From Saprospiraceae bacterium (lineage in GTDB: Bacteria > Bacteroidota > Bacteroidia > Chitinophagales > Saprospiraceae): 64,000 nt of DNA. Below are positions 1,689 to 19,558 of this stretch, one piece after another. The notes under the pieces are model-generated. The model had not been told where the DNA came from. It made no database searches and saw nothing but the letters and a program-made list of their open reading frames with translations. Location: contig JANQSS010000144.1 of NCBI GenBank assembly GCA_028279185.1, positions 21,190 through 85,189 of the forward strand, given 5' to 3'. The position numbers and the translations under genes are program-made. The first letter of the stretch is position 1, and each line of letters opens with the position of its first letter.

Positions 1689-2813
1689 CTATGATGGCCT
1701 ATTTGCTGCTGTTTGTTGTCTTATTCACAGGATTATACCGTATGAGCCTAGCTTAATTAGGTTAGGCAGTCGTACCTCTTGGATCTTTTAATATAAAAAA
1801 TAAAAGCCAAGAATAAATAAATTATGAAATACAAACCTGGGTCATGTTTGTAAAGACAACAAGCACCAGTATTATCAATGAAGTAGAAAATAATGAAAAT
1901 GGCAAGTAGACAATTATTTTTAAGTGCTCATAATTATTTAATAATAGTCAAACTATAATCAATTTTCCAGCACCCATATATCCCTTTTATTATCTTCAGG
2001 AGGTAAAAAGCCGGTGTTATCCGTTCACATAATATTTGGAGACCCAATTAGAAAAGAGAATTATGTTGGAGTTGATAACTCAGTTGAATTCCATTTCATT
2101 CAAAGTCTGTGATTCGAAATGCTTCTAGATTAAGAACTTTAGCTCCATTTAACGTACATTGATCTACGATTACTTAAAAATCGAATCTAAGAAAGCCATT
2201 ATCCATTTTTCTCTTTATTTCCACAATACTTCCGATTCCAAGAGCACCAGTGCCATTGAGCTTCGGTGTGCTTAGCTATCTTAACAATTCAATATCTTTT
2301 CTCGTGATCGTAACTTGAGTAGAGCGATTGGTAATCGACACTACTACTCGCTTGTTTTGTGCCACCCATTTCACAAGACAGTTCCATAAGATATGTCGTC
2401 AATCGTTGAATGCGGGGATACGCAGCATTGACGAAATAATCCTTTGCCGGCTTTCAGCAGAAGGTGGCCTCCAAAATAGGTAGTTTCACAAAATCGGTCA
2501 CTGAAATTAAGAATATCGGCTCGCGACCATTCGGAAAATGTCGACGGTAGATAGATAATCCCTGTCAACCCAATAATTGCGTCTTCATCTATACGCAGTA
2601 ATTTCAAATAAAATACGCATTCCAGGATTAAATACTCTATGTCGATCTCATTTAAAACAAAAGACGCTAAGTTATTGGTTGGTGCATACAAGTAGTTACG
2701 ATTTTATTGCCCGTCAACTATTTATCAGCTATCGGTTTGTTGTGTTGGTTCCACAACAACTGCATTAAATAAACACTATCGGTGAATTGATTAGCAAAAA
2801 AGGTCGCTTTGCT

Positions 2814-4481
2814 TTAGTTAGAATCTTTTATAAATCGCTTTACGATCTGTCTTGATCCTGAGTCCAGCACTAAAAAATAAATCCCGTTTAATAATTGACC
2901 AGTTGGAACATGAGTAATAGCCGTTTCAGAATAATCCGAAAACACCTTTCTTCCAAACATGTCTAATATCTCAAGTTGATATGGGTTCAAGTCATTTTTT
3001 TCGTGGTCGACATATATTTGTAGCTCGTCAACAACAGGATTGGGCCTCAGTTGCACTTTGAAATCATTCGCGTCTTCGAGTTGAGCGACATGTTTGAATT
3101 TCGTATTTTCTTTCAAGTTGCCAGGATAACATGCTTTTGCTGATTTTTCGGATTCCAATCCAATGACACAAATTGCCCTTACCGCCCATGCAAAACAGCC
3201 CTGCTCAAAGTTGGATGGGATAGGAAAAGAATTGTCAAAACTTACACCTTGATAAATAATATCTTCAATGGGGTTCCCAACATCTGCTTTGCACATACAA
3301 GGAGTTAACCCACCAACAGAGAAGTATATTTCATAACCTATTGCACCTGGAACTTGATCCCATGTGAGCAGATCCGGACCTGGTAAATTTGTAACCACTG
3401 AAAGATTTTCGGGCGCTGGACATTCTGTGTTATTCGTACCACAAGGATCGATCTGGGCAACAGCACCTGTTTCGAATCCAACTGATGCAACACTAATATC
3501 ATCGGTAAATAGTTCGAATTGGTTGCTGTATAATAACTGACTCTGCTGGGAGAGGCCTACATGGGTAAGACCGCTAAAAACGTTCTCGCAAGAATAAATT
3601 AACCCGCCATTATTATCTGGAATAAAAACAGAACTGACAGTAATAGTGGCTTTAACTTCCTCAACAGGGTTAATAAAATCGTTGTTTGAAATTGTAATTG
3701 ATACAGTATTAAAGTCTATAAATGATACAGAGCCTCCGAACACCCCTAAAATAAACCATTCGCCTGGGAAACTAGGATAGTGCTTGATGTCAGCGTTATA
3801 AGTGTATTCTCTTTCTTCTGAGTCATTCTTCAGAATTAAAGATATAGATGCATCAACAGAACAATCATTTGATACCATTCCACTGGGTTCTCCAAACACA
3901 TCTAGTTCAAAGATATAGTCTTCAAAATCGCAATGTTCATTTGGTATATTTAGGTTAATGAAGAGTTCCGGTGACACAAAACAGGATAAGCACTCATTGC
4001 CAAATATTTCTATCGGAAAGGGGTCCCAATAAAGGTTTTTCAGCCATAAAGATCGAATACATGCTTCAGGTTCAGATTGTATATAAATTCTAAAGGCAAC
4101 CAGTTCTCCAGGAAGGTTATAAAAATCGCCATATCGCGCCTCCGCAACGCGTACGATTTTGCGATTCGCACCTATAAAACTCAAGCTAGCACCGACGTCA
4201 GCTAATGTTGAATTTAAGCTTGCTACCGTTCTGATTTCGTCAATATCGAAATTTGATGTTGAACTTAATTCAACATCCATCGTAAAAGCATTCAAATTTA
4301 ACTCGCCGAATTCATCCGTATTCCAAGTCGCCTCCATATAATAACGACCATTTTCGTACAGCACATCGGACATAGTCAAATAGTTTCCTATGGGCTGAGG
4401 GCCGCATTGCGCTATGGCTAGTTGATCTAATGTAGATAGATATGAGCAGAGTACTATTAAGAAAGCAATTCTCGAAATCAT
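2814..4481 (-). CDS. secreted protein with T9SS (Por) C-terminal sorting domain and an FN3-like module
   Basis: Start taken at the internal Met giving the signal peptide 'MISRIAFLIVLCSYLSTLDQLAIAQ'. The C-terminal ~80 aa 'LRPNPVVDELQIYVDH...GIYFLVLDSGSRQIVKRFIKD' is a typical T9SS CTD. 'PAPENLSVVTNLPGPDLLTWDQVPGAIGYEIYFS' is FN3-like. Confidence 0.75.
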   Translation of the reverse strand: MISRIAFLIVLCSYLSTLDQLAIAQCGPQPIGNYLTMSDVLYENGRYYMEATWNTDEFGELNLNAFTMDVELSSTSNFDIDEIRTVASLNSTLADVGASLSFIGANRKIVRVAEARYGDFYNLPGELVAFRIYIQSEPEACIRSLWLKNLYWDPFPIEIFGNECLSCFVSPELFINLNIPNEHCDFEDYIFELDVFGEPSGMVSNDCSVDASISLILKNDSEEREYTYNADIKHYPSFPGEWFILGVFGGSVSFIDFNTVSITISNNDFINPVEEVKATITVSSVFIPDNNGGLIYSCENVFSGLTHVGLSQQSQLLYSNQFELFTDDISVASVGFETGAVAQIDPCGTNNTECPAPENLSVVTNLPGPDLLTWDQVPGAIGYEIYFSVGGLTPCMCKADVGNPIEDIIYQGVSFDNSFPIPSNFEQGCFAWAVRAICVIGLESEKSAKACYPGNLKENTKFKHVAQLEDANDFKVQLRPNPVVDELQIYVDHEKNDLNPYQLEILDMFGRKVFSDYSETAITHVPTGQLLNGIYFLVLDSGSRQIVKRFIKDSN

Positions 4482-4791
4482 GGTAATTTGTTTAATTAAT
4501 TGATACAGGTCAATATTGCCAAACAGACCGATTATTCTCATAGATCAACCTAGAATCCAAAACGTAACCGGAATAGCTGAACTTTTTTAACCAAGCATGA
4601 TCAAAACGTGTATTAAATACTATAAAAGATGACCGCTTTCAAAAAGTATGAATAAAAACGAGTAGAAAGATTACGATTAGACATAATTACGCAACGGAAA
4701 TAATTTGACCTTTCTTCTGAAGACAGAAACAACATGGACCAGTTAGTGAAGCAGATGACCACTCCATCATAAACTTAACATACCTGGCTCC

Positions 4792-7700
4792 TTATCTCAT
4801 CCTAATGACACCCCAACAAAGTAGAACTAATATTAATGGAAATAAAATATAACTTATCTTTTTCCATTTCGTGTTTAATGAAATTGGCTCCATATTACCT
4901 GAAGCGATAAATCCTGCCCAAAAGTATGGGTCAGGCTGGGCACCGAAAGCTAAGTGATCCAATTTTGCCTGTCGTAGTGCAGCATCCTTTTGCATTCCTT
5001 GATTGAGATAGGTATAAAAAGATTTCATCAGCTCGGAAGTCTGTGCATCATCAACACTCCAAAGGCTGGTAACCGTACTGGCAGCCCCGGCGTAAGTGAA
5101 GCCTCGTGCCATCCCAATAATGCCTTCTCCCTCCTGGAGTTCCCCTAAGCCCGTTTCACAAGCACTGAGCACAACAAGATCGGCATTGAGTTTCAGGTTG
5201 TACAGATCACGAACATACAGGAGATTGTCCTTATCCGAGGTATCATTGGTCTCTGAAAAAGCGATATAGGAAAAATCACCCATATTATCATTTGCTTTTC
5301 CATGTGTTGACAAGTGCAACATTCTATATTGATTCGCATGCGTCAAAAAATATGACGTTGTTGCCAAATCGCCAGTCACCACATCAGCACCATATATCTC
5401 CTTTATGGCCATCGTTTCTGTAACATTATATTCCAGCGCATTCAACCCGCTTCGTAATGATATCAGGTCATCGTGAGAAATGGTGTCTGATTGAAATTTG
5501 GGCGACATACAAAGCATGGTTTTGTGAGGGTTACTCTTAGTGTTATTTTTCAAATCATACCACAAAGTGGCAGAATAATCAGAACTTATTTGATGTCTAT
5601 TAATTAGATAAGCGTACTGACGAAAATCGTCGGTGCTGTCATGTTCTTGTGTCGTAAGCGCATCAAAAGGTACATAATGTAAAGGTCCATCTGGAATAAT
5701 GATTAGTTTTTTTGCGAGATTCGATTCGAAGGGTTTGATGAACTTTGTGAATAAAAGGTGTGCTTCTTTTGAATAACTCACCTTATTGTCTAAATATTTC
5801 TCATCACTGTATTTGGAATTCATCCAATATGAATAAATACTATTCCTAAGTTCTGTAATACTAGAAGCCAAGTCAAAATTTAGTGAGATTTCCTCGATCA
5901 TACTATTGTTTTGACGGATTACAAATGCATAAGCGTTACTATCACCGACAAAATACTCTACTAGTGTCTCTTCCGAAGATAGTTCACTTTGGATGTCCTC
6001 AATAGAACGTATATCATTCGCGTATTTTATTTTGTAATAATTCGGGTAACGTTCTTTGAGAGAGGCTGTTATACTATCACTTGTTTGCCGAAGGTGAAAC
6101 AAGCGTGATTTAAACCTTTCAGCCAAGCTATCTTGAGAATTTTCTACCAAAAATTGTTGCTCATACAGTTTCTTTTCGTAGTGCGCTATTTTTACATTTG
6201 TATCATATATTTTATTTGAAATGGCTTCCGGTAATGCTGCAAAGGACTGAGCTTCCACTTCCAGAAATCGCTCTCTCATAAAAGAACTCTTACTCTTCTC
6301 CAAAAAATAAAATAATTTTTCGAGCGAAATATGTGCGTCAGTTTTCTCTTTTAGTAAAAAATAAATTTGGAATGCTTGGTCTAGTACTTCTCGAAAACTG
6401 GGTTTGAGACCATGGTCGCATCTACCGAGTTCGCATTGTTCATACAGGTTGACATATTGCTCTAAGGCAATTTCATTGTGTATCCATGCATGCCGTAACA
6501 ATTCAATACTGTCTTTGAAATGATGGTACTGCGTAATACGCAATTCTGCTTTGGCATATTGTATTTCCACAAGGGCACGTATTTGTTTTGTATGAATTAT
6601 CTTTTCAGGCAAGGCGGAATTCAATTCAAGCGCATTGAGGGCCAGGTTATAGTAAGTTTCGGCCGAATCAATCTGCCCTAATGAACTGCTAACACGCCCC
6701 AAGTACTTATAAATACTCCAATACCACGACTCTCGGTCCCGATAAAATTCTTTGTTATATGAAAGCGCTTGTTGATAGTGATTTCGGGAGCGTACATACT
6801 GCTCCTGCTCTTCAAATAATTGAGCTAGAGAAATATGAGTTTTGGCTATTTGATTGACATCAAGGTTTTTGTCATGTAATTGTACATCAAGAATTTCTTG
6901 TAAGTATTGTTCAGATAATTTATATTCCCCAATATTTTTATGCGCATAACTTAAATCTCTTTTTTGGCCAATCGCTGCGGTCTTTTTTTTAGCCGCATTT
7001 TCCTCGAAAACAGTTTGAGAAAACTTAATGTATTCAATTGCCTTAGCGTAGTTTCCGAGAGCATTGTGAGCTTTGCCGAGCAGATGATAGGTACCGGCCT
7101 GAAACACAGTGTTTTCTTGAAATGTCCCCTTCCGAGCAGCTATCGCTTGTTCAAAATACAAAATGGCCCTATGTGGATCGTTGTTATTTAGCTGTAAGAG
7201 TCCAATTTTCTCCAACCAAATCGCTGTGCCCAATGTACCCCACCTTGTTTTTGTATTATGTGTGGCTTCGATAGCCATTTTGTACCATTTTAAACTTTGT
7301 TTAAAATCATTTATATCTCGATATACACTGCCAATATTTCCATAAATGAGTGGATAGTTTTTTGGAATGTCATCAGGCAATTGATCCAAAAATTTAATTC
7401 CAAGGTGATAGTAATCTAGAGCCCTATCATGAAGTTGCAATTTATTGTGGATCATACCCGCTGAGCTAAGCAAGGAGACATAGGTCAATTTATTTTGACA
7501 TTCAGGGTTTTCTTCACATATGGAAATGCCTTTTTTAACAGCTTCTTTGGCCAATTGAGTTTTATCCTGACGTATATATAAATTGCTGATGATTTTATAA
7601 CTCTGCACAAGAGTTAGATAGTTATAACGATTATATATAGCTAAACTTACCGCCTTGTTTGCATAGTAAAGTGCTTTCTCGGTGTTTCCCATTCGAGTAG

Positions 7701-8076
7701 AAATCGTTGCCAAATAGCTATATACTTTCATAGCAAAGGGGAACGTATCATTCAGATGTTGATAGTTTTTAAGAATTTGATAAAAACTAAAAAATGCGGT
7801 GTCGTAATTCAACTGAACAAGATGTGTATACCCAATGGACATTTGTGCATAAATACTCAATGAGTCATTTACCGGTTCTAGATTATTATAAATTTGAAGT
7901 GCTTTTTTACGTAAATGTAGAGCCTCTGCGTAGTCTTTATTTGTTGTTAAAACCTCTGCACTATCCAAATAGTCGTTTGCCAGTCTTGTATCTGAAGATT
8001 GTGCAAAAAGGTAAAACGATAAAAAGCAGAAAGAAATAAAAGAAGTTAGGGATTTCATATGTAAGGGCTTGAACAA
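4792..8076 (-). CDS. TPR-repeat / CHAT-domain (caspase-like) protease with N-terminal signal peptide and C-terminal TM anchor
   Basis: Signal peptide 'MKSLTSFISFCFLSFYLFAQS' (real start may be the Met at 8058). Long TPR-like region follows. The C-terminal CHAT domain carries the His/Cys dyad context 'LSTHGKANDN...LVVLSACETGLGE'. Hydrophobic tail 'ISYILFPLILVLLCWGVI'. Confidence 0.8.
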   Translation of the reverse strand: MFKPLHMKSLTSFISFCFLSFYLFAQSSDTRLANDYLDSAEVLTTNKDYAEALHLRKKALQIYNNLEPVNDSLSIYAQMSIGYTHLVQLNYDTAFFSFYQILKNYQHLNDTFPFAMKVYSYLATISTRMGNTEKALYYANKAVSLAIYNRYNYLTLVQSYKIISNLYIRQDKTQLAKEAVKKGISICEENPECQNKLTYVSLLSSAGMIHNKLQLHDRALDYYHLGIKFLDQLPDDIPKNYPLIYGNIGSVYRDINDFKQSLKWYKMAIEATHNTKTRWGTLGTAIWLEKIGLLQLNNNDPHRAILYFEQAIAARKGTFQENTVFQAGTYHLLGKAHNALGNYAKAIEYIKFSQTVFEENAAKKKTAAIGQKRDLSYAHKNIGEYKLSEQYLQEILDVQLHDKNLDVNQIAKTHISLAQLFEEQEQYVRSRNHYQQALSYNKEFYRDRESWYWSIYKYLGRVSSSLGQIDSAETYYNLALNALELNSALPEKIIHTKQIRALVEIQYAKAELRITQYHHFKDSIELLRHAWIHNEIALEQYVNLYEQCELGRCDHGLKPSFREVLDQAFQIYFLLKEKTDAHISLEKLFYFLEKSKSSFMRERFLEVEAQSFAALPEAISNKIYDTNVKIAHYEKKLYEQQFLVENSQDSLAERFKSRLFHLRQTSDSITASLKERYPNYYKIKYANDIRSIEDIQSELSSEETLVEYFVGDSNAYAFVIRQNNSMIEEISLNFDLASSITELRNSIYSYWMNSKYSDEKYLDNKVSYSKEAHLLFTKFIKPFESNLAKKLIIIPDGPLHYVPFDALTTQEHDSTDDFRQYAYLINRHQISSDYSATLWYDLKNNTKSNPHKTMLCMSPKFQSDTISHDDLISLRSGLNALEYNVTETMAIKEIYGADVVTGDLATTSYFLTHANQYRMLHLSTHGKANDNMGDFSYIAFSETNDTSDKDNLLYVRDLYNLKLNADLVVLSACETGLGELQEGEGIIGMARGFTYAGAASTVTSLWSVDDAQTSELMKSFYTYLNQGMQKDAALRQAKLDHLAFGAQPDPYFWAGFIASGNMEPISLNTKWKKISYILFPLILVLLCWGVIRMR

Positions 8077-8189
8077 AATTGATGTCTAGAATATAAGAAT
8101 ATTTAAAGTCGAGTGATTTATCCTAGAAAGCATTTCAGTTATAGTGTTACGCGCTGCACCGCACGTGAGACTATCCGTCGTTACATGGG

Positions 8190-8933
8190 TCAGTTCAAAC
8201 TCAATCTCTCCAACACTTCAACCATTTCCTTTCTATTAAAGTGTGATACAGTCGAATCAACCGTCGCCCTCAACATTTGCTTTGCCTTATCGACTTGGTT
8301 TGTTTTCAAATAGGCCAAAGACAAAAACCAAACGACTTGTTCTTCAAAAGGGCCGCCGCCCTCGTTTTTAAGCGAAAGAAGAATTTCGATAGCCTTTTCT
8401 GTTTGATTAATCGACATCAAAGACATGGCTCGATAAAATCGTTGCGGTTGATTAAAATCGATACCTTGATTTTCTGCGATTTGGAATGCTTCGTTGGCTA
8501 ATTTATATTGACCATTGGCATAGGCCTTCATGGCTTGCGAAAGAATACTCGAATCCACTGGAGCTTCATTGCCATTTTTTTGTTCGAACAGACTCGGATA
8601 TGGCTCAAAATAGGCCGCATAAATGTTTGCCGGAGCATCCGTTTTTGATCCGATTGACTTAATAAGCAGAAAACCGCCAACTCCGATGAAAACAGCGACT
8701 AATAAAAGAATCCATTTTAATCGATCTCTTCTTTTTTCTCTTGCTATCATGTCGTTATGAATGGCGTGCATTTTTTGTCGAAGTTCGGACCGTCCAAGAC
8801 TGCGAATACTTTCATCAGTGATTAAGTCGGCCAAATCTTCTTCATTCAATGAATGTTGCGACTTAGCATGTTCATGCGTCTCTAAAAGCGATTTCAAGTA
8901 GCGAATAATTATATTTCGTTTTTTTTCTATCAT
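8190..8933 (-). CDS. anti-sigma factor-like membrane protein (cytoplasmic N-domain, single TM, periplasmic TPR-like domain)
   Basis: 4-nt ATGA overlap with the upstream ECF sigma gene. TM segment 'WILLLVAVFIGVGGFLLI'. C-terminal TPR-like helices. Confidence 0.65.
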   Translation of the reverse strand: MIEKKRNIIIRYLKSLLETHEHAKSQHSLNEEDLADLITDESIRSLGRSELRQKMHAIHNDMIAREKRRDRLKWILLLVAVFIGVGGFLLIKSIGSKTDAPANIYAAYFEPYPSLFEQKNGNEAPVDSSILSQAMKAYANGQYKLANEAFQIAENQGIDFNQPQRFYRAMSLMSINQTEKAIEILLSLKNEGGGPFEEQVVWFLSLAYLKTNQVDKAKQMLRATVDSTVSHFNRKEMVEVLERLSLN

Positions 8934-9541
8934 CGCAACTCGTTTAATAATGCGGTCAAATCGATAGATTCTTCAATTATTTTCTTCAATTTTTGAAGAC
9001 ATTTGTATTTCTTATTTCGGGCTATTTGTTCATTGTCATAACCCATTTCCTGTGCTATAGCTTTCATAGATTTGTCCAAATAAACTGCTGCCGTGAGCAC
9101 TTTTTTGCAGTCATCACCTAATGCATTCAAAATCAATTTGACAAAGGCATTTTCTTCAGCTCTTGTCAATTGATCTTTTGGCAATAAGGTCAATGCAGGA
9201 TATCGTTCCTCCCGCATATCATCATGAACAAGCTTCATATTCTTCTTCAATCGGTTAACCCATAGATTCCGACTGACAGTATATAAGTATGTTCCTATTT
9301 TTGCTTGAGTCTTAAAGTCATCCGATTTCACTCGTTCGTAAAACACAAGTAGTGCGTCTTGAAATATATCCTGTACGTCTTGATCATTTCCTCCCCTACT
9401 TCTTATCAGCTTTTTGATCATCCCGTAATGAGTCGTATAGAGATATTCGATTACCTTATCCTCTTCCGATGAGCGCTTTCGAAGTATACGCACAACCTCT
9501 TCGTCTGTATAGTCTTGTCTGTTCCCAGCGCGCTTCATCAT
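8930..9541 (-). CDS. ECF (sigma-70 family) RNA polymerase sigma factor
   Basis: Sigma-70 region 2-like 'DIFQDALLVFYERVK' and a region 4 HTH near the C-terminus. Size ~200 aa. Translationally coupled to the anti-sigma gene. Confidence 0.8.
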   Translation of the reverse strand: MMKRAGNRQDYTDEEVVRILRKRSSEEDKVIEYLYTTHYGMIKKLIRSRGGNDQDVQDIFQDALLVFYERVKSDDFKTQAKIGTYLYTVSRNLWVNRLKKNMKLVHDDMREERYPALTLLPKDQLTRAEENAFVKLILNALGDDCKKVLTAAVYLDKSMKAIAQEMGYDNEQIARNKKYKCLQKLKKIIEESIDLTALLNELR

Positions 9542-10069
9542 GTAATCATTTGTAGCAAGATGACAAAGATATAGAAGCTGAATAAAATTATGTTGAAAAT
9601 AGCGATGCCATTCACCTAGTCAATATTGACGACATAGTTTGTTATCAGACTGAAAGCAGTTACTCCAATTTCTTTCTATCCGACGGAAGAAAAATGATAA
9701 CGTCGTAAAATTTGCGTGAATACGTGAATATAAACGCTTATTAACACATCATCGATTCATGCGCTATATTCATATTCGACAAACTTAAATCACATTACAG
9801 AGGTTTGAAAAAGTGATAGCGGACAATTGTGTATGACCAATAGTAGATTTATTCTAATCAGCAAACACAAAAAGGTCCAAATCCCTAACATAATAAGTCG
9901 GTCATTTATTACTTAATTTAAGTACGCCATTTTATTTCATCAATAAAATCCGCAATGACTTTGTACAACTCCTGGTATTCGACACAACAAAGTCATCCAC
10001 CAGTCTTTAGCTTTCCGTGCAGACAAGATCCAAACAAGATGATAAAAAATAAAAAAAAGTTCAAATAAA

Positions 10070-10102
10070 TTTGGAAACTAAAATTATTTGCATTTACCTT
10101 TG
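10070..10102 (+). promoter_or_regulatory. candidate Bacteroidota sigma-A promoter (-33 TTTG / -7 TAnnTTTG) reading into the tRNA/ncRNA region
   Basis: TTTG at 10070-10073 and TACCTTTG at 10095-10102 with ~21-nt spacing. No ORF lies downstream, only the tRNA region. Confidence 0.25.
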
Positions 10103-10362
10103 TGTCGAAATGATAAAACAAGATAAACATATCATCTTATCGAAGGAGTGCTTTTCAAGTAATCCGATGACGGCCGTAATGGTCCACTAGTCTTCTCTTG
10201 ACTCAAGCGTTGGCTGGTGCCAATGCAACTATTTTTTCTCATTAATATTCGCATTGGATTCTCGGTTTAGAAACTGAATTGATTTTAATTATTTTATCAT
10301 GAATTGACATGAATAAAATGGGCCGTGCTATGCACAATGCCAAGTGAAAAATCGAAAAAAAT

Positions 10363-10434
10363 TGGCTTGTAACTCAACGGTAGAGTATCCCGCTTTTAAC
10401 GGGAGAGTTGTAGGTTCGAATCCTTCCAGGCCAA
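10363..10434 (+). tRNA. tRNA-Lys (anticodon UUU)
   Basis: Hand-folded cloverleaf. Acceptor TGGCTTG/CAGGCCA gives 7 bp with one G-U. D-arm ACTC-AACGGTA-GAGT. Anticodon arm TCCCG-CTTTTAA-CGGGA with U33 and UUU at 34-36. T-arm GTAGG-TTCGAAT-CCTTC has one U-U mismatch. Discriminator A, CCA not encoded. Confidence 0.6.
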
Positions 10435-10927
10435 CTTCATTTTTAATTGTCGAATTTGTCGACCGAAAAAGTTCATTGACATATTACACATACTTAGGTG
10501 TGTGGAAATAATAAGGGCAGCTTATTGTCCCAGGAGTTATCCTAAAAATAACTGTGGTAACACAGGTAAATCTGGAATTGGAGTTCACCAATCCGGAGAC
10601 TGGAGAAATTCAGTTTGAGTAAGCAAGCAATTATCGATTGTAAACCTAGTGGTCAGTGTCAAGCGATGAGATCATTGGTTGCAATTACCCAAGCAGTGGA
10701 GCGCGGGTTGAGATGGAGACATCAATAGGGAAAATTGTAGTGATTCGGTATATATAAGATTATCCATTTTTTTATATGCTGGTTGCAGTACGAGGGATAG
10801 GTGCTCGGTGACGAGTCGTTATCCTGCTGTACGGTGAGTCGGGAGACTTGCAGAAAGGAGTGGAGTATTCTGAGGGCCAAAATCTTCGGAGCTGCATCCG
10901 AGACACTTCTTTCAAAATCTACCAGAC

Positions 10928-10994
10928 AATGTGATTAGCTCATTGGTAGAGCGTCTGACAACTAATCAGAAAGTATTGGGTTCGATTCCCAAAT
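10928..10994 (+). tRNA. non-canonical tRNA-like element (possible pseudo-tRNA): perfect D-arm, anticodon arm and T-arm but A at position 33 and an unpaired acceptor stem
   Basis: D-arm GCTC-ATTGGTA-GAGC. Anticodon arm TCTGA-CAACTAA-TCAGA, where loop position 2 is A rather than the near-universal U. T-arm TTGGG-TTCGATT-CCCAA. Acceptor strands ATGTGAT and ATCGACT do not pair (about 4-5 of 7). Confidence 0.3.
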
Positions 10995-11466
10995 CGACTT
11001 TATTGTTAAAAGCAAAAGTCTCGGACGTAGCAAAGTAGTAATTGCCTAAACCCATTGTAATATATGGGCCGGATAATGCCGCAAGCATTGTGCGGGTAGT
11101 GCACATTCGTTTAGCCGGCTTCAAGGCCTGCCTTGGAGAACGTTAATTAAATGCCGGGGGCCAACCCCGCTGCTTATCGACTTGAGGGTCGTTGAGCAGT
11201 TGCAAAGAGCGACTAAAAGTCGCTATGCATGCTAAGTCTAAGGTGCTGATCATTTGCTATGTATCTATAATGGCATTGAGCCTTTACTGTGATGAAGCAA
11301 TTCGGAGCAGTGGATAACGAGGGAAAACTGAAGCCGCAACTTCGGTCATAATCTTCGGAAAGGAGGCTTGTAAAATGTGTAATCCCAACATTTTTTAAAA
11401 AATTCTAAAACATAATAAGTAAATGCTGAACGAATTTTAGTACAGCATTAACATAAAATTAAAATA

Positions 11467-11506
11467 CAACAATCAATCAGAACTGTGTTCTTCTGATTGA
11501 TTGTTG
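11467..11506 (-). terminator. intrinsic terminator hairpin downstream of the 11532..11915 gene
   Basis: Perfect 16-bp inverted repeat CAACAATCAATCAGAA / TTCTGATTGATTGTTG with an 8-nt loop. AT/U-rich flank on the minus-strand transcript. Confidence 0.5.
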
Positions 11507-11531
11507 CTCAAATTTTTACTAATCCGGTGAT

Positions 11532-11915
11532 TTAACAAACCGACCCACCATTGCAGGAATAGGTGTCGAAAGATGCCGTATACGTATTACAACCTCTTAC
11601 TACCACCGTTATTGTTAAATCTTCGCAATCGGGCAAATCATTAACAGAAAAACATGCATTTGGAGCAGTCCCAGTACCGCTTGCTACTGTATTTCCGCTG
11701 CCATCTTTAACCGTATAGGCGATAATTAATGTTCCAGAGCCGCAACCGGAAATGGTAACGTTAATATCACCACAATTAGAAGATACGGTTAGGCCAGATG
11801 CAGATTCGGTAATCAACTCTTCCTTTAGATCATCCGAATCAACATTAAAGGAAGCTCCAAAAGCCAAACCAACTACGCATAGCGATAAAATTAAAATAAA
11901 CAAGTTCTTTTTCAT
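11532..11915 (-). CDS. small secreted Cys/Gly/Thr-rich protein (127 aa)
   Basis: Signal peptide 'MKKNLFILILSLCVVGLAFGA'. Multiple Cys residues. Strong terminator follows. Confidence 0.55.
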   Translation of the reverse strand: MKKNLFILILSLCVVGLAFGASFNVDSDDLKEELITESASGLTVSSNCGDINVTISGCGSGTLIIAYTVKDGSGNTVASGTGTAPNACFSVNDLPDCEDLTITVVVRGCNTYTASFDTYSCNGGSVC

Positions 11916-12142
11916 GATTACTATTTTTAATAAGTTGCCTACTCTTTTCTAGCTTTTCGGCGTCCGCATATGCAGATTAATACCAGTAAGACCAAAAAGA
12001 TACCGGTGAATCGAACTTTTTTATTGAAAAAAATAATTTCAAACGATACCGCATACCGAAGAACCACTCATTATAGCATTTTGGCTCCTTTGCTATTCTC
12101 GACAAAATGTAATACATTTCTTTTCTATAAATAATTAAACCT

Positions 12143-12700
12143 ATGCTTGACTTCATTTCTCAACCCTGGCCATGGTACGTGTCAGGACCAATGATCGCCT
12201 TAGTCATGTTACTTCTCTTGCTTTCAGGTGGCAACTTCGGTGTCAGCAGCACATTACGAAGTACATGCTCTATTTTAGGCGCCGGTAAACGGGTGAAATT
12301 CTTTGACTTTGATTGGAAAAATCAAATTTGGAATTTAGTCTTTGTGTGCGGAGCGGTAGTTGGAGGGTGGGTTGCGTCTACCTGGTTGAATGGAAATCAT
12401 GACCTGGAAATTTCACAGGCAACTGTAGAATCCCTGGCAGAACTTAATATCGCGTTCTCCGGAGGTCTGGTTCCTGAATCATTGTTTAGTTGGGAGCACG
12501 TACTATCTCTTCAGGGGTTCCTGGTTATCATTGTCGGTGGCTTCCTTATCGGATTTGGTGCGCGTTGGGCAGGTGGATGCACATCAGGACATGCGATTAG
12601 TGGGCTCTCAAATTTTCAATTTCCTTCCCTTCTTGCCGTAATTGGGTTTTTCATCGGAGGCCTCATCATGACATTTCTACTTTTTCCCATTATCTTTTAA
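12143..12700 (+). CDS. YeeE/YedE family (sulfur-transport-type) membrane protein, first half
   Basis: Polytopic membrane protein carrying the family motif 'GGCTSGHAISG'. Confidence 0.75.
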   Translation: MLDFISQPWPWYVSGPMIALVMLLLLLSGGNFGVSSTLRSTCSILGAGKRVKFFDFDWKNQIWNLVFVCGAVVGGWVASTWLNGNHDLEISQATVESLAELNIAFSGGLVPESLFSWEHVLSLQGFLVIIVGGFLIGFGARWAGGCTSGHAISGLSNFQFPSLLAVIGFFIGGLIMTFLLFPIIF

Positions 12701-12711
12701 TTCAACCATAG

Positions 12712-13125
12712 ATGAAGTACATAAAATATTTAATGATTGGCATTCTCTTTGGCATCATAATGACAAAATCCGAAGCTGTTTCCTGGTACCGGATCCAGGA
12801 AATGTTCCGTTTTCAAGCATTTCATATGTACGGTATTATAGCGACAGCATTACTTTTCGGTGTGCTCATTACGCGAGTTCTTAAATACAATACCTACAAA
12901 TCTATAGATGGTAAGCCAATTCAATTTCAAGACAAACAACGAAGTGTAGCCCGATATCTTCTGGGCGGTATAGTTTTTGGTCTCGGCTGGGCGCTGGCAG
13001 GTTCATGCCCAGGACCAATGTTTACTTTATTGGGAAATGGATTTACAATTTTCATTTTAGTTATTGCAAGTGCGGTATTAGGAACTTTTACATATGGCCT
13101 TTTACGTGACAAATTGCCTCATTGA
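12712..13125 (+). CDS. YeeE/YedE family membrane protein, second half
   Basis: Motif 'AGSCPGPMF'. Adjacent to the first half with an 11-nt gap, the typical split-pair arrangement. Confidence 0.75.
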   Translation: MKYIKYLMIGILFGIIMTKSEAVSWYRIQEMFRFQAFHMYGIIATALLFGVLITRVLKYNTYKSIDGKPIQFQDKQRSVARYLLGGIVFGLGWALAGSCPGPMFTLLGNGFTIFILVIASAVLGTFTYGLLRDKLPH

Positions 13126-13162
13126 TGAACGTATGATAGCAGACAAAATCGGCTACTATATA

Positions 13163-13200
13163 AAAAGGGTAGTCAAAATTGACTACCCTTTCTCGATTTT
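13163..13200. terminator. bidirectional terminator hairpin between convergent genes
   Basis: AAGGGTAGTC-AAAATT-GACTACCCTT followed by T-rich sequence. Confidence 0.5.
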
Positions 13201-13212
13201 ATGGAGTATATC

Positions 13213-13557
13213 TTATTCTTGTTTAAACTCAACAGAAATTTCATATTCGGCTTGATCATCCGATAATTTTGTACTTATCTTTCTTCCTTCCAATTGCTTT
13301 TTAATTGTTTTGCAAACTTCGTGGTCTGCGCAATCAACTTCAATTACTTCTATTCTATTTTTCCGATTTAATTTAAACGTAACATGTGCAGCAATGTCTA
13401 CGACATCAATTCCCATTTGCGAAAGGTGTGTGGTGACTTCGGCGCGTAATGATTTTTTCTGTTTCGTTGTTGAATTTGAAATATCCGCTGCGGAGACAGA
13501 TGAGATTGAAAGCATAATTGTCAACATAACGAAAGAAAGACTCTTTAAAAGTTTCAT
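13213..13557 (-). CDS. small secreted protein, paralog A (114 aa)
   Basis: Signal peptide. Shares an 'S(L/Q)LRAEV' block and overall design with the 13949..14326 product. Confidence 0.55.
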   Translation of the reverse strand: MKLLKSLSFVMLTIMLSISSVSAADISNSTTKQKKSLRAEVTTHLSQMGIDVVDIAAHVTFKLNRKNRIEVIEVDCADHEVCKTIKKQLEGRKISTKLSDDQAEYEISVEFKQE

Positions 13558-13948
13558 AGATTGTGATTTGTGGTTAAAAAATCTAGATAATGTCGTGCGT
13601 GTGAAACACGATCAAAAGAGTACGTTTCAATTCATTGGCAAATTATTTCGTTTTAACAATGTTCTACTAATGTGAATTTCTTTGTGACTCTCTTATAACA
13701 TTATCGATGAAATAAAATTGCTACTTCATCAAAATATTAACAATTACCTTCTACAAATTCATGCAAATACTCGATAAACATTTTTACTATAAGTCCTATT
13801 AGAAAACTCAGTAAACGAATACCGCATATTAAAAGGTATATTCGTTTAACACAAATAAATTTCTTATGTCAAAGCCATCATAATGAAAAAAGACACCTGA
13901 TCCTTCGACCAGATGCCTTCACATTCATCTACACTTGATATGTACCGG

Positions 13949-14326
13949 TTATTGCTCTTTCTGAAATATTAAATCGATAAAATACTTCTGATTCTTGTCT
14001 TTGAGGTGTGTTTTAACTTTTTTATAGTTCAAACGACGTTTTATAATGGATGAAATGTCATCGTTCTCAGATTCAACATACAGCACAACGATCTCGTTTT
14101 TGGCCGAAACCATAAAACTCACGGTGGCTACTTCACGCCCGTCAATCAACTCCAGGTCGACATCATTTATATATTTCAATACCTCTGCTCGTAGCTGTGA
14201 TTTCGTTTCATCTGGAGTAGGTGGACTTGTGTCGGCGATAGCAGATGTACTAAATAGGGCCGATACGAATAATAAGAGCACAGAACTTTTAATCATCTTC
14301 ATTACAAAATATTTTTGGGTTAACAA
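13949..14326 (-). CDS. small secreted protein, paralog B (125 aa)
   Basis: Signal peptide 'MIKSSVLLLFVSALFSTSAIA'. 'SQLRAEVLKYINDVDLELI' parallels 'SLRAEVTTHLSQMGIDVVDI' in paralog A. Confidence 0.55.
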   Translation of the reverse strand: MLTQKYFVMKMIKSSVLLLFVSALFSTSAIADTSPPTPDETKSQLRAEVLKYINDVDLELIDGREVATVSFMVSAKNEIVVLYVESENDDISSIIKRRLNYKKVKTHLKDKNQKYFIDLIFQKEQ

Positions 14327-15120
14327 TTTTTAAAGTTTATAATAAGCTATTCTTAGCGTGATGGATAATTAAACCTAATACGCTCATGTCGTGTTGCCCT
14401 GCCCCTAAATTTTATTCCCACCTTTCTACTAATAAGGGTCGAAAGTCGATGAGCGTATCGACATCATATGCAAACAATTCTTGTTTGCATTTATGTAAAA
14501 AATTCGATTTGTTAACATCTGGTTAAAGACTCTGTTAAGATAAAATATCCTCTCGCGGCAATTTTGCTGTTGCTGTATTGAGCCCAGGTAAAAGCTACAT
14601 GTTTTATTCATGCAGCTGACTGTGGACAAGGAGGTAAATTGGTTAACGAACATACGGTCCGCCGAAAGGTCAGTGATTAGATGATGTTGTGTTGTAACCG
14701 TTGGTTATAGGAAAATTTCATCTACGCTGATCGATACTGCAAAGGAGTATTAATTTATAGCCAACAATGTAACCCCCTGGCGATCCCGCTCCCAATACGT
14801 TTTCGATCCATCTTGAATACCAGGGCAATGACACTTCAAAGGTCTGTGAAGACTTTTGAGTATTGGGTGTAATGCAGCCAAATGAAATTGTCATTATTCT
14901 TGCCGAAGCCACATTCGATAACAGCGAAGCACTTGAGCAAGACGAACCACGACAATATTTGATGTTGGGCTTCCATAAAAGTCTGTACGCGCCAAGGTCC
15001 GAGACAAAATTACAGACCATTTCGCCGCTTACATTCACCTCGATTGCACTAGATCCAATAATTAAACCCCTCCTAGGCGAGCCTAGCATTTATAAACAAC
15101 CTATCAGACAGCTCTTTAGT

Positions 15121-15558: not shown

Positions 15559-16961
15559 GTGTTTTTATCAAATTTTCTTGGATTGAAGTATTTATGTTCT
15601 AATAGTCGTGGTGCTTGGATATTATGATAGTATTCTGATTGACGTAGATTGCCATTTATATAAAAATAAACTTCCCCTTCTATCCAGTACGGTCCATAGG
15701 ACTCATGGCCTGCATATCGCACATCCAATGATTTTCCGCTCTTGGTTCTACTAATACGCCTGACGACGGCATGATGCTGGGCATCATACCAAACTTGAGG
15801 CGAGGTTAAATCTCCTTCGTTCGCTCCAATAATGTATACGGGGCGGTTTAAATATTTTCCAGTTCGAAATATTTCTGTATTGATACCCAAACTATCCAGG
15901 CGCCATTTTATTTCCGCCTCATCATAGTGGTGAAATCCATTTTTAAATAATAGCGAAGCTTGATACTCTCCAGCAGCATGAACAATTTCTCCTTTTCTTA
16001 ATACATATAAACTGTCCGCACACCACAAGTTGCGATTTTTATCCTTCGCAGAACCGAAGTCAATTCGAAATTGATGTGGATATCGAACAGCCTCATGCCA
16101 ATAAGAAGTGTCCTGTATATTACCCTCTTCATCAAAACGTACCGTCTCTTGATAGAATGTGAATCCATCTAACCTCTGATCGCGAAACTGATCTTTTAGG
16201 TAGGCGTAATAGCCCATTGTTGTCCTAGGGTGGAATTCGAAAAAATTAACTGGATATTCTTCGTTGACCTTAATGCTATCATAGGTCATTTCAAATTGAC
16301 GACCATCACTTGCAATTAAGCTTATCCGAAAAGGAAAAGGATAGCCATCCACTTTTTTGAAATCGTAGAATTTGGTCTTATAGTATACTCCTGCGTGAGC
16401 CGGATCTTCGGAATACTCACCTGTCATGTATATTAAACTAGTCTTTAAGTCGATCCAATACATTTGCGTATCTACAACAGACTTCACTACTTGCAGCACC
16501 GCACATGACTTTTCATCTATCCTTTCATCTTTTAGCCGTGTTACCGTATATGGATAATTTCTGGCAAACAATAGCTCTTCATAAAATTCCGGCTCTTCTT
16601 CCATTTCAATTTCCTCTCCTGGTCTCATCTCTATATAATTTCCATCAATTGATAGAAAGCCTTGTTTTCCGTCATACGATTTAATTCGTTGACGTCCATC
16701 GCGCCAACTTACTATTTTGTACTCATCCGGTTTGCGATTGTGGTTTGTAACGACTACGCCATTTGGTCGTGTTTGAAACAAGGTGTAGGTTCGCATATTT
16801 TTCCACAAATCCGTACCGCCCATTGCATCAATATGCGCGTCCAAAATGACATCAACATTATGTTCAAAATTTTGGCCCGATATTACAGCAGCAAACCAGT
16901 TTATCGTAATAACTAATAGCGTATACAGCTTTAATTTATGTACCTTTTTACTTATTCCCAT
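15546..16961 (-). CDS. hypothetical secreted protein (471 aa)
   Basis: Hydrophobic N-terminal signal/anchor. Aromatic-rich. No recognised catalytic motif. Overlaps the downstream gene by 13 nt. Confidence 0.55.
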   Translation of the reverse strand: MGISKKVHKLKLYTLLVITINWFAAVISGQNFEHNVDVILDAHIDAMGGTDLWKNMRTYTLFQTRPNGVVVTNHNRKPDEYKIVSWRDGRQRIKSYDGKQGFLSIDGNYIEMRPGEEIEMEEEPEFYEELLFARNYPYTVTRLKDERIDEKSCAVLQVVKSVVDTQMYWIDLKTSLIYMTGEYSEDPAHAGVYYKTKFYDFKKVDGYPFPFRISLIASDGRQFEMTYDSIKVNEEYPVNFFEFHPRTTMGYYAYLKDQFRDQRLDGFTFYQETVRFDEEGNIQDTSYWHEAVRYPHQFRIDFGSAKDKNRNLWCADSLYVLRKGEIVHAAGEYQASLLFKNGFHHYDEAEIKWRLDSLGINTEIFRTGKYLNRPVYIIGANEGDLTSPQVWYDAQHHAVVRRISRTKSGKSLDVRYAGHESYGPYWIEGEVYFYINGNLRQSEYYHNIQAPRLLEHKYFNPRKFDKNTWYE

Positions 16962-17012
16962 TTTAATTTAAAATAAATCCACTGAATGGTAAAAATTATC
17001 GTATTCTCTTTG

Positions 17013-19424: not shown

Positions 19425-19558
19425 TCGAATTAGTTTAGTAACACAAGTTACTTGGATTAAATATTCGCGACATAGTAAAATTTATCCTCGTTCATGTCGA
19501 ATTTTTACTATTAGAGGTGGGAATTTACCTACATCTTTATCAGCTTAAGTAAAATATT

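Follow-up and report, generated by a model that had tools for sequence, protein, structure and literature searches.

In a 64,000-nucleotide stretch of contig JANQSS010000144.1 from a Saprospiraceae bacterium (hereafter the window), the genes for a sigma factor with extracytoplasmic function (ECF), a single-pass membrane anti-sigma factor and an exported TPR-CHAT protease lie side by side on the minus strand, and it is very likely that the three proteins are functionally linked in one pathway. The preferred reading of this link, given a probability of roughly 0.4, is that the CHAT protease cuts the anti-sigma factor in trans, as its site-1 protease. Slightly more tentative is the fuller version of this reading, in which CHAT would be a dedicated trans site-1 protease with its TPR array of ~700 residues as the receptor, a YFEPYPSL..QKNG-type linker of the anti-sigma factor as the substrate, and lipoproteins and type IX secretion system (T9SS) proteins as the output. 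To our knowledge, neither the event that removes the anti-sigma factor nor its protease is known for most ECF pathways; the module described here gives a candidate protease whose gene adjoins that of its presumed substrate in hundreds of species. The four genes of the original prediction, namely those for the trio and a T9SS cargo protein, were all found as co-directional open reading frames (ORFs) on the minus strand, with the expected gaps of 113 nt (from a TTG start; 131 nt from the ATG) before the CHAT gene and 250 nt before the cargo gene.

Conserved linkage of the three genes

Relatives of the sigma factor were collected in a one-genome-per-species scan with the peptide pattern [AV]RNKKYKC and a 6-sequence sigma alignment, an 11-sequence alignment being too divergent. 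The scan returned 309 relatives, and the best 80 of the 309 were fetched with 10-kb flanks; all 80 belong to the Bacteroidota, mainly to the Chitinophagaceae, and also to the Flavobacteriaceae, Saprospiraceae, Cytophagales and Sphingobacteriales. The nearest sigma relative comes from a Saprospiraceae metagenome-assembled genome, at 40% identity. Homologues were sparse in the word-indexed protein database (10 matches for the sigma and 2 for the anti-sigma factor), and the plasmid collection held no near-identical DNA to the window. The CHAT gene was sought in six-frame ORFs of the fetched loci with the CHAT domain of the window as query, and was counted within 10 kb; loci with a flank of at least 5 kb were treated as informative (n=73).

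The expectation that the CHAT gene would be conserved beside the sigma/anti-sigma pair was borne out in 68 of the 73 informative loci (93%), where it is usually the next gene after the anti-sigma gene. It lies downstream of the pair and convergent to it in 65 loci, and upstream and divergent in 3; 5 loci with a downstream flank of at least 5 kb have no CHAT gene, and 7 more without one lie on contigs too short to judge. The same gene arrangement occurs in metagenomic relatives, and a CHAT gene also stands beside the most divergent sigma factor found (28% identity). Viewed from the CHAT side, a divergent sigma factor and a partner gene of ~245 aa accompany two of the three distant homologues examined on long contigs. 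The anti-sigma and TPR-CHAT proteins are encoded by separate genes in the window and in all relatives examined.

The co-directional, operon-like layout of the original prediction is present in the window, but it recurs in 0 of the 68 relatives (65 convergent, 3 divergent) and is therefore specific to the window. Since the relatives are never co-directional, the sigma/anti-sigma/CHAT link does not rest on co-transcription; the linkage outlasts rearrangement between convergent, divergent and co-directional forms, as would be expected of a functional rather than a transcriptional tie. A chance juxtaposition in the genome of the window would suit its separate gaps (131 and 250 nt) and the lack of a shared promoter motif there, but is extremely improbable given that relatives in several Bacteroidota families keep the CHAT gene beside the pair and that CHAT matches in the 1.4 Mb of fetched loci are nearly confined to this position. 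For the trio, chance is refuted by the conserved linkage; it is possible for the T9SS cargo gene only.

The 3' ends of the anti-sigma and CHAT genes overlap or lie no more than 6 nt apart in 20 of 33 directly adjacent convergent pairs. A terminator does not fit into such tight convergence, and the arrangement suggests that the two units interfere in transcription or are coupled by antisense RNA. The overlap is 4 nt in loci L004, L007, L011, L012, L020, L024 and L072, and 13 further loci overlap or approach to within 6 nt.

Architecture of the sigma, anti-sigma and TPR-CHAT proteins

The sigma gene (8930..9541, minus strand) encodes an ECF (group 4) sigma-70 factor of 203 aa. Residues 31-188 matched TIGR02937 (E 5e-21, 75 bits, cutoff 42.9), and Pfam Sigma70_r2 was matched above its cutoff (E 7.7e-11), with Sigma70_r4_2 sub-threshold at 13.5 bits. 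Every match of the sigma profile in the PDB was an ECF sigma factor, and region 4 of the family bears the distinctive signature NEQIARNKKYKCLQKL in the family alignments. Upstream of the sigma gene in the window, ~820 nt (9542-10362) are without an ORF of at least 80 codons, and this stretch is bounded by a tRNA-Lys (TTT) gene (10363-10435, plus strand). In Flavobacteriaceae relatives a divergent small T9SS cargo gene occupies the corresponding position, and for this reason the window locus may have been rearranged, perhaps beside the tRNA-Lys gene.

The anti-sigma gene (8190..8933, minus strand) encodes a single-pass protein of 247 aa that was assigned as an anti-sigma factor from its position, its topology and a motif near the N-terminus, and its ATG overlaps the sigma stop codon by 4 nt (ATGA), in agreement with the translational coupling that had been proposed for the two genes. 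Clustering placed a homologous partner gene, family f1, in each of the 86 fetched loci; it directly follows the sigma gene in 76 cases, with 8, 11 and 4 nt as the commonest overlaps. The predicted topology comprises ~70 cytoplasmic residues, a transmembrane helix at residues 73-94 (KWILLLVAVFIGVGGFLLIKSI; 8652..8717, minus strand) that appears as hydrophobic columns in the family alignment, and ~150 periplasmic residues. The AlphaFold model, which was built from two sequences only and has a mean pLDDT of 74, contains a continuous helix over residues 48-94. In the N-terminal region, the family consensus of 75 sequences is L..YLDG.L...E....E..L..D..L, which we take to resemble helix 1 of class I anti-sigma domains (ASD). 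The zinc motif H-x3-C-x2-C is missing: this region of the window protein is free of Cys, and neither Cys nor His is conserved there in the consensus. The anti-sigma factor, if it carries an ASD, is on its sequence of the non-zinc type. In loci L025, L036, L039 and L053 a shorter anti-sigma paralogue (~190-210 aa) that bears the promoter motif described below lies directly upstream of the sigma gene, so that the operon order in these loci would be anti-like gene, sigma, anti-sigma.

Two parts of the anti-sigma factor are predicted to face the periplasm. The juxtamembrane linker (residues 95-129; 8547..8651, minus strand) carries the conserved motif YFEPYPSL..QKNG, in which F109, Y112, K/R119 and G121 are among the most conserved anti-sigma columns (75-sequence alignment); the motif is identical in the homologue P0002 (36% identity). 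In the AlphaFold model, residues 109-129 adopt no regular structure (pLDDT falls below 50 over 118-126), and the linker is a candidate recognition site for a protease or a TPR domain. The second part (residues 130-246; 8196..8546, minus strand) is the periplasmic TPR-like domain that had been anticipated from the translation, and was recovered as a helical repeat of three units with block pLDDT mostly ~75-95. Pfam reported sub-threshold TPR matches only, and Foldseek aligned the repeat with domains such as those of YbgF, HOP TPR1 and IpgC at TM scores of 0.7-0.8 (target-normalised) and weak E-values of 0.03-0.1; the matched domains are small peptide-binding TPR domains.

The TPR-CHAT gene (4792..8058, minus strand) encodes 1088 aa from an ATG at 8058, which is the likelier start and agrees with the database protein P0013; the longest ORF begins at TTG 8076 (1094 aa). 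A signal peptide, TPR repeats, a CHAT domain with an intact His/Cys pair and a C-terminal anchor, all named in the original prediction, were all found in the protein, in that order. The predicted signal peptide is MKSLTSFISFCFLSFYLFAQS (7996..8058, minus strand), the CHAT domain spans residues ~766-1055 of 1088 (4894..5763, minus strand; the Pfam match covers 772-1061 of the 1094-aa ORF), and the translation ends in a transmembrane anchor, KISYILFPLILVLLCWGV (4807..4860, minus strand), followed by the basic tail IRMR. The match to Pfam CHAT (PF12770; E 7.5e-58, 196.7 bits, cutoff 24) covers profile positions 4-289 of 289, and is joined by many TPR matches. The AlphaFold model (pLDDT 85, pTM 0.82) consists of helical repeats at residues 22-690 followed by the alpha/beta CHAT domain.

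Alignment places the catalytic dyad at His919 (HLSTHG; codon 5302-5304, minus strand) and Cys967 (VLSACETG; codon 5158-5160, minus strand). Both residues, in the contexts STHG and SACETG, are invariant in alignments of 62 locus-derived and 44 database sequences as well as in a 12-sequence domain alignment, and this strict conservation indicates that the protease is under selection. The closest solved relative in sequence is DdvA of Myxococcus xanthus, an anti-sigma factor with a fused periplasmic TPR-CHAT part (PDB 8rot/8rw5; PMC11506125, PMC6061681): the window dyad aligns with H862/C907 of DdvA in a profile alignment, and a CHAT-domain profile searched against PDB sequences returned DdvA (8rot_B) first at E 2.5e-9, with Csx29 at ~1e-3. 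A single-sequence PDB search with the whole protein returned TPR proteins only, and the profile was needed to reach DdvA and Csx29. The top Foldseek matches of the model were Csx29 (8eey_B, 2e-20), human separase (~1e-17) and DdvA (8rot_A, 9e-15).

A hydrophobic N-terminal stretch is present in 58 of 62 full-length family members and a C-terminal one in 59 of 62, the latter usually followed by an R/K-rich tail. By the positive-inside rule such a basic tail is cytoplasmic, and the TPR-CHAT part is therefore predicted to be periplasmic. The claim that the protease shares a compartment with the TPR domain of the anti-sigma factor is thus supported by the conserved signal peptide and C-terminal anchor, within the limits of predicted topology.

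The same architecture would suit a role for the TPR-CHAT protein as a sensor or co-anti-sigma factor, which would bind the periplasmic TPR domain or the linker of the anti-sigma factor with its TPR superhelix and lock that factor until ligand-induced release or self-cleavage of CHAT, the anti-sigma factor itself not being a substrate. Both partners have TPR modules, which typically bind peptides or proteins, their two anchors would hold them in the same membrane, and the convergent, often overlapping 3' ends (20 of 33 pairs) would suit balanced stoichiometric expression; TPR-CHAT proteases gated by partners are also known from separase/securin and Csx29/Cas7-11 (PMC11506125). This role is nevertheless considered unlikely, as pure scaffolding would leave the strict conservation of the dyad unexplained.

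At 8059-8100 (minus strand) in the window, CAATTTTG lies ~20 nt upstream of the CHAT ATG; it resembles the Bacteroidetes housekeeping -7 element TAnnTTTG, and as a candidate it would supply the CHAT gene with its own sigma-A-type promoter. Tandem duplicate CHAT genes stand beside one sigma/anti-sigma pair in L013 (3917-6862, 6890-9835), L088 has a CHAT gene and a similar TPR-rich paralogue (6001-9399, 9399-12737), and L023 carries a second CHAT-plus-sigma copy ~2 kb downstream of the first (9878-14376, 16517-20495); these extra copies show that the module can be amplified. The CHAT gene is broken into two or three ORFs in the metagenome-derived loci L001 (5246-8432), L039, L051, L064, L071 and L073, and the split ORFs could be frameshifts, pseudogenes or assembly errors. 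Elsewhere in the window, a 185-aa ORF (31876-32433, plus strand) gave a weak match to the full-length TPR-CHAT profile, presumably to its TPR part.

A promoter-like motif and the predicted regulon

Among two-block word pairs upstream of 91 sigma genes, the dominant signal was TTACA-N16-TTAC, found in 47 sequences. It was refined to a 35-nt matrix, trained on sigma-upstream sequence only, with the consensus GGTTACAAA-N14-TTACnAAT, and the motif typically starts ~45 nt before the sigma ORF. A scan of the 1.4 Mb of loci on both strands at a threshold of at least 16 bits returned 153 matches, against 3 in block-shuffled loci, and nearly all were upstream of genes of the module. Matches were located upstream of the sigma gene (67), of a ~290-aa lipoprotein gene that immediately precedes CHAT in 47 loci (family f3; 26), of a lipoprotein gene with DUF4382 and CarboxypepD_reg that follows the anti-sigma gene (f4; 20), of genes for small (~160-aa) proteins with a T9SS C-terminal domain (CTD) that are divergent from sigma in Flavobacteriaceae (f15; 6), of a small exported protein gene (f28; 4) and of the short anti-sigma-like gene just before sigma (4). 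A further 22 matches have no downstream ORF of at least 80 codons, most of them between the anti-sigma gene and the 3' end of CHAT, and 4 lie upstream of other genes, 2 of these away from the module. In L002 and L004, copies with lower scores stand before the larger T9SS cargo genes. From its position upstream of sigma genes and its ECF-like two-block form, the motif is predicted to be the target of the ECF sigma factor. In the supplement to the ECF classification, the strings GGTTAC and TTACAA are absent, and GTTACA is present solely in a differing -10 context, that of ECF29.

The distribution of the motif bears on whether CHAT is instead an output of the pathway, that is, a sigma-dependent envelope protease that processes exported or damaged proteins while the anti-sigma factor is inactivated otherwise. 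In 41 loci of the Chitinophagaceae type, the CHAT gene begins a median of ~50 nt downstream of f3, and at least 26 f3 genes carry the motif; the gaps are short, and CHAT in Chitinophagaceae is therefore probably transcribed from the motif promoter. The CHAT gene of this family thus appears to belong to the predicted regulon of the sigma factor, and may be an output in addition to an input. The other predicted members of the regulon are all exported (the DUF4382/CarboxypepD_reg lipoprotein and the small T9SS CTD proteins), and envelope proteases are common in ECF regulons.

In the 20 loci without f3 (Flavobacteriaceae, Saprospiraceae and the window), on the other hand, CHAT has no preceding motif and is still tightly linked to the pair, while neighbouring cargo genes do have the motif; therefore, a constitutive signalling component fits these loci better than a mere output. 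Additionally, the putative substrates of such an output protease vary by clade (f3/f4, f15, unrelated cargo), whereas the CHAT protein is constant, and DdvA, the nearest solved relative, is itself part of an anti-sigma factor. Overall, an output role for CHAT is doubtful as the sole explanation, though it is the strongest of the alternatives.

The window itself has no recognisable motif upstream of sigma, CHAT or cargo, the best score being 2.7 bits, at chance level. Scanning all 64 kb with fixed- and variable-spacing matrices gave 12 matches of at least 11 bits against ~5.7 in shuffled sequence, none of them before sigma or CHAT, and the loci closest to the window likewise score poorly. A clade-specific two-block search of 19 upstream regions from the 7 closest loci returned nothing convincing apart from a shared 12-mer, CGGTTACGTTTT, which is discussed with the cargo gene. 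A generic sigma-70 scan of the window was uninformative, with 35 promoter-like sites against 27 expected and 6 terminator-like sites against 5.5 expected.

Some motif copies without a downstream gene are strong and lie on the plus strand after the anti-sigma gene, aimed at the 3' end of the convergent CHAT gene, as in L026 (4590-4624) and in L042 and L043 (11412-11446). Tandem copies on the same strand occur in L045 (11375-11409, 11449-11483) and L059 (11373-11407, 11448-11482), and further plus-strand copies in L049 (1702-1736), L051 (4874-4908), L061, L062, L081, L082 and L084. Between the anti-sigma and CHAT genes, no conserved small ORF was found behind these copies; they could be promoters of an antisense transcript, or of a small RNA, directed at the CHAT mRNA, or remnants of an f4 gene that has been lost. 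The f4 lipoprotein gene (DUF4382 and CarboxypepD_reg-like) follows the anti-sigma gene in 29 loci, many of them from Chitinophagaceae (e.g., L037, 3119-3982, plus strand). A Gly/Asn/Asp-rich exported protein of ~800 aa with no Pfam match (family f12; e.g., L044, 6964-9345, minus strand) adjoins the small T9SS cargo gene upstream of sigma in at least 8 Flavobacteriaceae loci, and may be a further member of the module.

A candidate trans site-1 protease

In the trans site-1 model, the anti-sigma factor would hold the sigma factor at the inner membrane through its cytoplasmic N-terminus of ~70 residues, and would expose the flexible, conserved linker and the small three-repeat TPR domain in the periplasm. 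The TPR-CHAT protein would leave the cytoplasm by means of its signal peptide and stay fixed to the same membrane through its C-terminal anchor, facing the periplasmic part of the anti-sigma factor. The CHAT protease would be activated by a cue from the periplasm or the cell surface, probably some protein or peptide that the TPR arrays bind, and would cut the juxtamembrane linker in trans; a site-2 protease and cytoplasmic proteases would then release the sigma factor. The freed sigma factor would transcribe its own operon from promoters of the GGTTACAAA-N14-TTACnAAT type, and would also drive genes for exported proteins, which are predicted to be lipoproteins in Chitinophagaceae and small T9SS cargo in Flavobacteriaceae, with the 575-aa T9SS cargo of the window as a plausible, unproven counterpart. 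In Chitinophagaceae, the sigma factor would transcribe the lipoprotein-CHAT operon itself, giving feedback.

This model is favoured because the linkage survives rearrangement, the dyad is conserved, and the two proteins are predicted to share a compartment and a membrane; the conserved disordered linker, the missing motif before CHAT in one major clade and the DdvA fusion also argue for it. DdvA, which among solved structures matches the CHAT domain best in sequence, joins an anti-sigma domain, a transmembrane helix and a periplasmic TPR-CHAT part in a single polypeptide, which supports an action of CHAT on the anti-sigma factor in trans. The linker of the anti-sigma factor, being both conserved and predicted to be disordered, matches the region of DdvA where cleavage has been proposed.

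Several points weigh against this model. Five relatives with ample flank have no linked CHAT gene, and an alternative protease sought in those five loci was not seen among their neighbours, which were housekeeping genes and a PD40/OmpA protein only. The N-terminus of the anti-sigma factor has no Pfam or NCBIfam match, and its AlphaFold model is of low confidence (pLDDT 46-63). The window gives no recognisable motif before its own sigma, CHAT or cargo genes, and an output or feedback role would account just as well for the operon structure in Chitinophagaceae. In DdvA, site-1 self-cleavage in trans by CHAT has been proposed and is unproven, and dyad mutants had no phenotype under the conditions tried (PMC11506125). 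Contact between CHAT and the anti-sigma factor, its cleavage there and every later proteolytic step are what we infer from the arrangement of the genes and the predicted proteins.

Cultured carriers of the module are found in Ulvibacter, Aequorivita, Aureisphaera, Niastella, Segetibacter and Aquimarina, so that direct testing is possible, and the predicted motif and regulon (surface lipoproteins, T9SS cargo) provide ready reporters and point to a previously undescribed control circuit for the Bacteroidota cell surface. If the trans site-1 model is true, CHAT would be the first demonstrated case of a caspase-family protease that gates transmembrane transcription signalling in bacteria, and the result would settle the autoproteolysis model of DdvA. 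If CHAT is only an output, the module would still amount to a clearly bounded ECF group that is new, with promoter and regulon defined.

Relation to known systems

The original prediction regarded an envelope signalling role for a CHAT protease as unusual, a view that did not hold: precedents exist in DdvA (PMC11506125) and in the actinobacterial ECF54 group, whose genes stand beside CHAT-TPR genes. The resemblance to DdvS/DdvA lies in an ECF sigma gene beside a membrane anti-sigma factor, in a periplasm-facing TPR-CHAT part with a conserved His-Cys dyad, and in the proposed logic, by which CHAT would cut a flexible juxtamembrane linker at site 1 before RseP acts; DdvA lacking its TPR-CHAT part becomes an RseP substrate (PMC11506125). 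In contrast to DdvA, the anti-sigma factor (247 aa) and the TPR-CHAT protein (1088 aa) are here split into two genes, and the latter has its own signal peptide and C-terminal anchor, whereas the N-terminal transmembrane helix of DdvA is shared with its anti-sigma domain. The window anti-sigma factor also differs in lacking a CHCC zinc site and in having its own small TPR domain, and the predicted regulon consists of exported proteins rather than the CBASS/CRISPR genes of DdvA. DdvA-like proteins have been reported only from Myxococcota and one Comamonas (PMC11506125), whereas the sigma scan puts the range of the Bacteroidota module at 309 species genomes at least. The module is thus a split version of DdvA-like logic, though outside the DdvA family; the concept has this published precedent, and the key cleavage step is one that we infer. 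The split arrangement may ease testing of the DdvA model, as protease and substrate can be separately expressed, mutated and mixed.

A defence function, in which a periplasmic protein of an invader would be sensed by the module and a defence island turned on, draws on the same relationship, since DdvS/DdvA controls a CBASS-CRISPR island (PMC11506125) and the window CHAT domain is closest to that of DdvA. It is nonetheless highly improbable here: across ~80 loci, the neighbours and the predicted regulon consist of lipoproteins, T9SS cargo and housekeeping genes with no CBASS or CRISPR components, and the chromosomal surroundings of the module are conserved (hscB or rimO-like genes, for instance, stand beside it). 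The four window proteins gave no PADLOC defence-family matches except a generic TPR match, and the defence reading was rejected.

The ECF54 group, which is described as exclusively actinobacterial, has no evident anti-sigma factor, an associated subtilase and the predicted promoter GTATCAG-Xn-CTCC (Huang et al. 2015; Casas-Pastor et al. 2021 supplement). It shares with the Bacteroidota module an ECF sigma factor beside a CHAT protein with TPR repeats, and a CarboxypepD_reg-like protein in the gene context (here in 29 loci), which hints at a deeper shared module across phyla. Unlike ECF54, the Bacteroidota module has a clear anti-sigma partner and a differing motif, and no subtilase was seen in it. 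Csx29 and separase are alike in their overall TPR-CHAT architecture and caspase-like dyad, but they are cytoplasmic or nuclear and gated by Cas7-11/RNA or securin, whereas the window protein has export and anchor signals and no CRISPR context, and its sequence similarity to them is weak (~1e-3).

Classical systems for the regulated intramembrane proteolysis of ECF anti-sigma factors include RseA-DegS-RseP, RsiW-PrsW, RsiV and RsiP-signal peptidase. The present module resembles them in a single-pass anti-sigma factor that is translationally coupled to its sigma factor, and in a periplasmic domain that could block site-2 cleavage until removed; if CHAT acts at site 1, such a cascade would supply the later steps. 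The conserved linker, which is predicted to be disordered, and the bulky C-terminal domain of the anti-sigma factor would suit it. The site-1 enzymes of the classical systems are a serine protease, a metalloprotease or a signal peptidase, and are encoded elsewhere; the candidate site-1 enzyme here would in contrast be a cysteine protease of clan CD that has a huge TPR sensor, and is genetically linked to its pathway. A full-text literature search, the coverage of which was incomplete so that an earlier description is possible, returned no paper on a Bacteroidota ECF-CHAT system.

The T9SS cargo gene

The fourth of the predicted genes (2814..4541, minus strand) encodes a T9SS type A cargo protein of 575 aa, counted from the longest ORF; the true start is likely M21 at 4481, which opens the signal-peptide-like MISRIAFLIVLCSYLS. 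Its CTD (residues 500-572; 2829-3044, minus strand) matched Por_Secre_tail (E 1.6e-8, 35.1 bits, cutoff 27) and TIGR04183 (E 6.9e-9, 35.6 bits, cutoff 23). The FN3 domain once assigned to this protein was not recovered, as Pfam reports none at E <= 0.1. Beyond the CTD, the cargo has no homologue in the other fetched loci. Downstream of it, a 106-aa ORF with a TTG start (2371-2691, minus strand) is without a family match and may not be a gene.

The proposal that T9SS cargo is an output of the pathway stands in part: small CTD genes of Flavobacteriaceae do carry the motif, while the window cargo has just a -35-like 12-mer, CGGTTACGTTTT (4559..4570, minus strand), which is a weak candidate promoter element. 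The full two-block matrix scores this site no better than chance, because its -10 part lacks the invariant AC. Membership of the window cargo in the module is tentative, plausible but unproven. The closest relative, L007, carries an identical 12-mer, also upstream of a T9SS cargo gene, at a distance of ~20-30 nt. The cargo is the sole CTD protein detected in the 64-kb window, and T9SS cargo genes were found in 20 of the 87 sources scanned.

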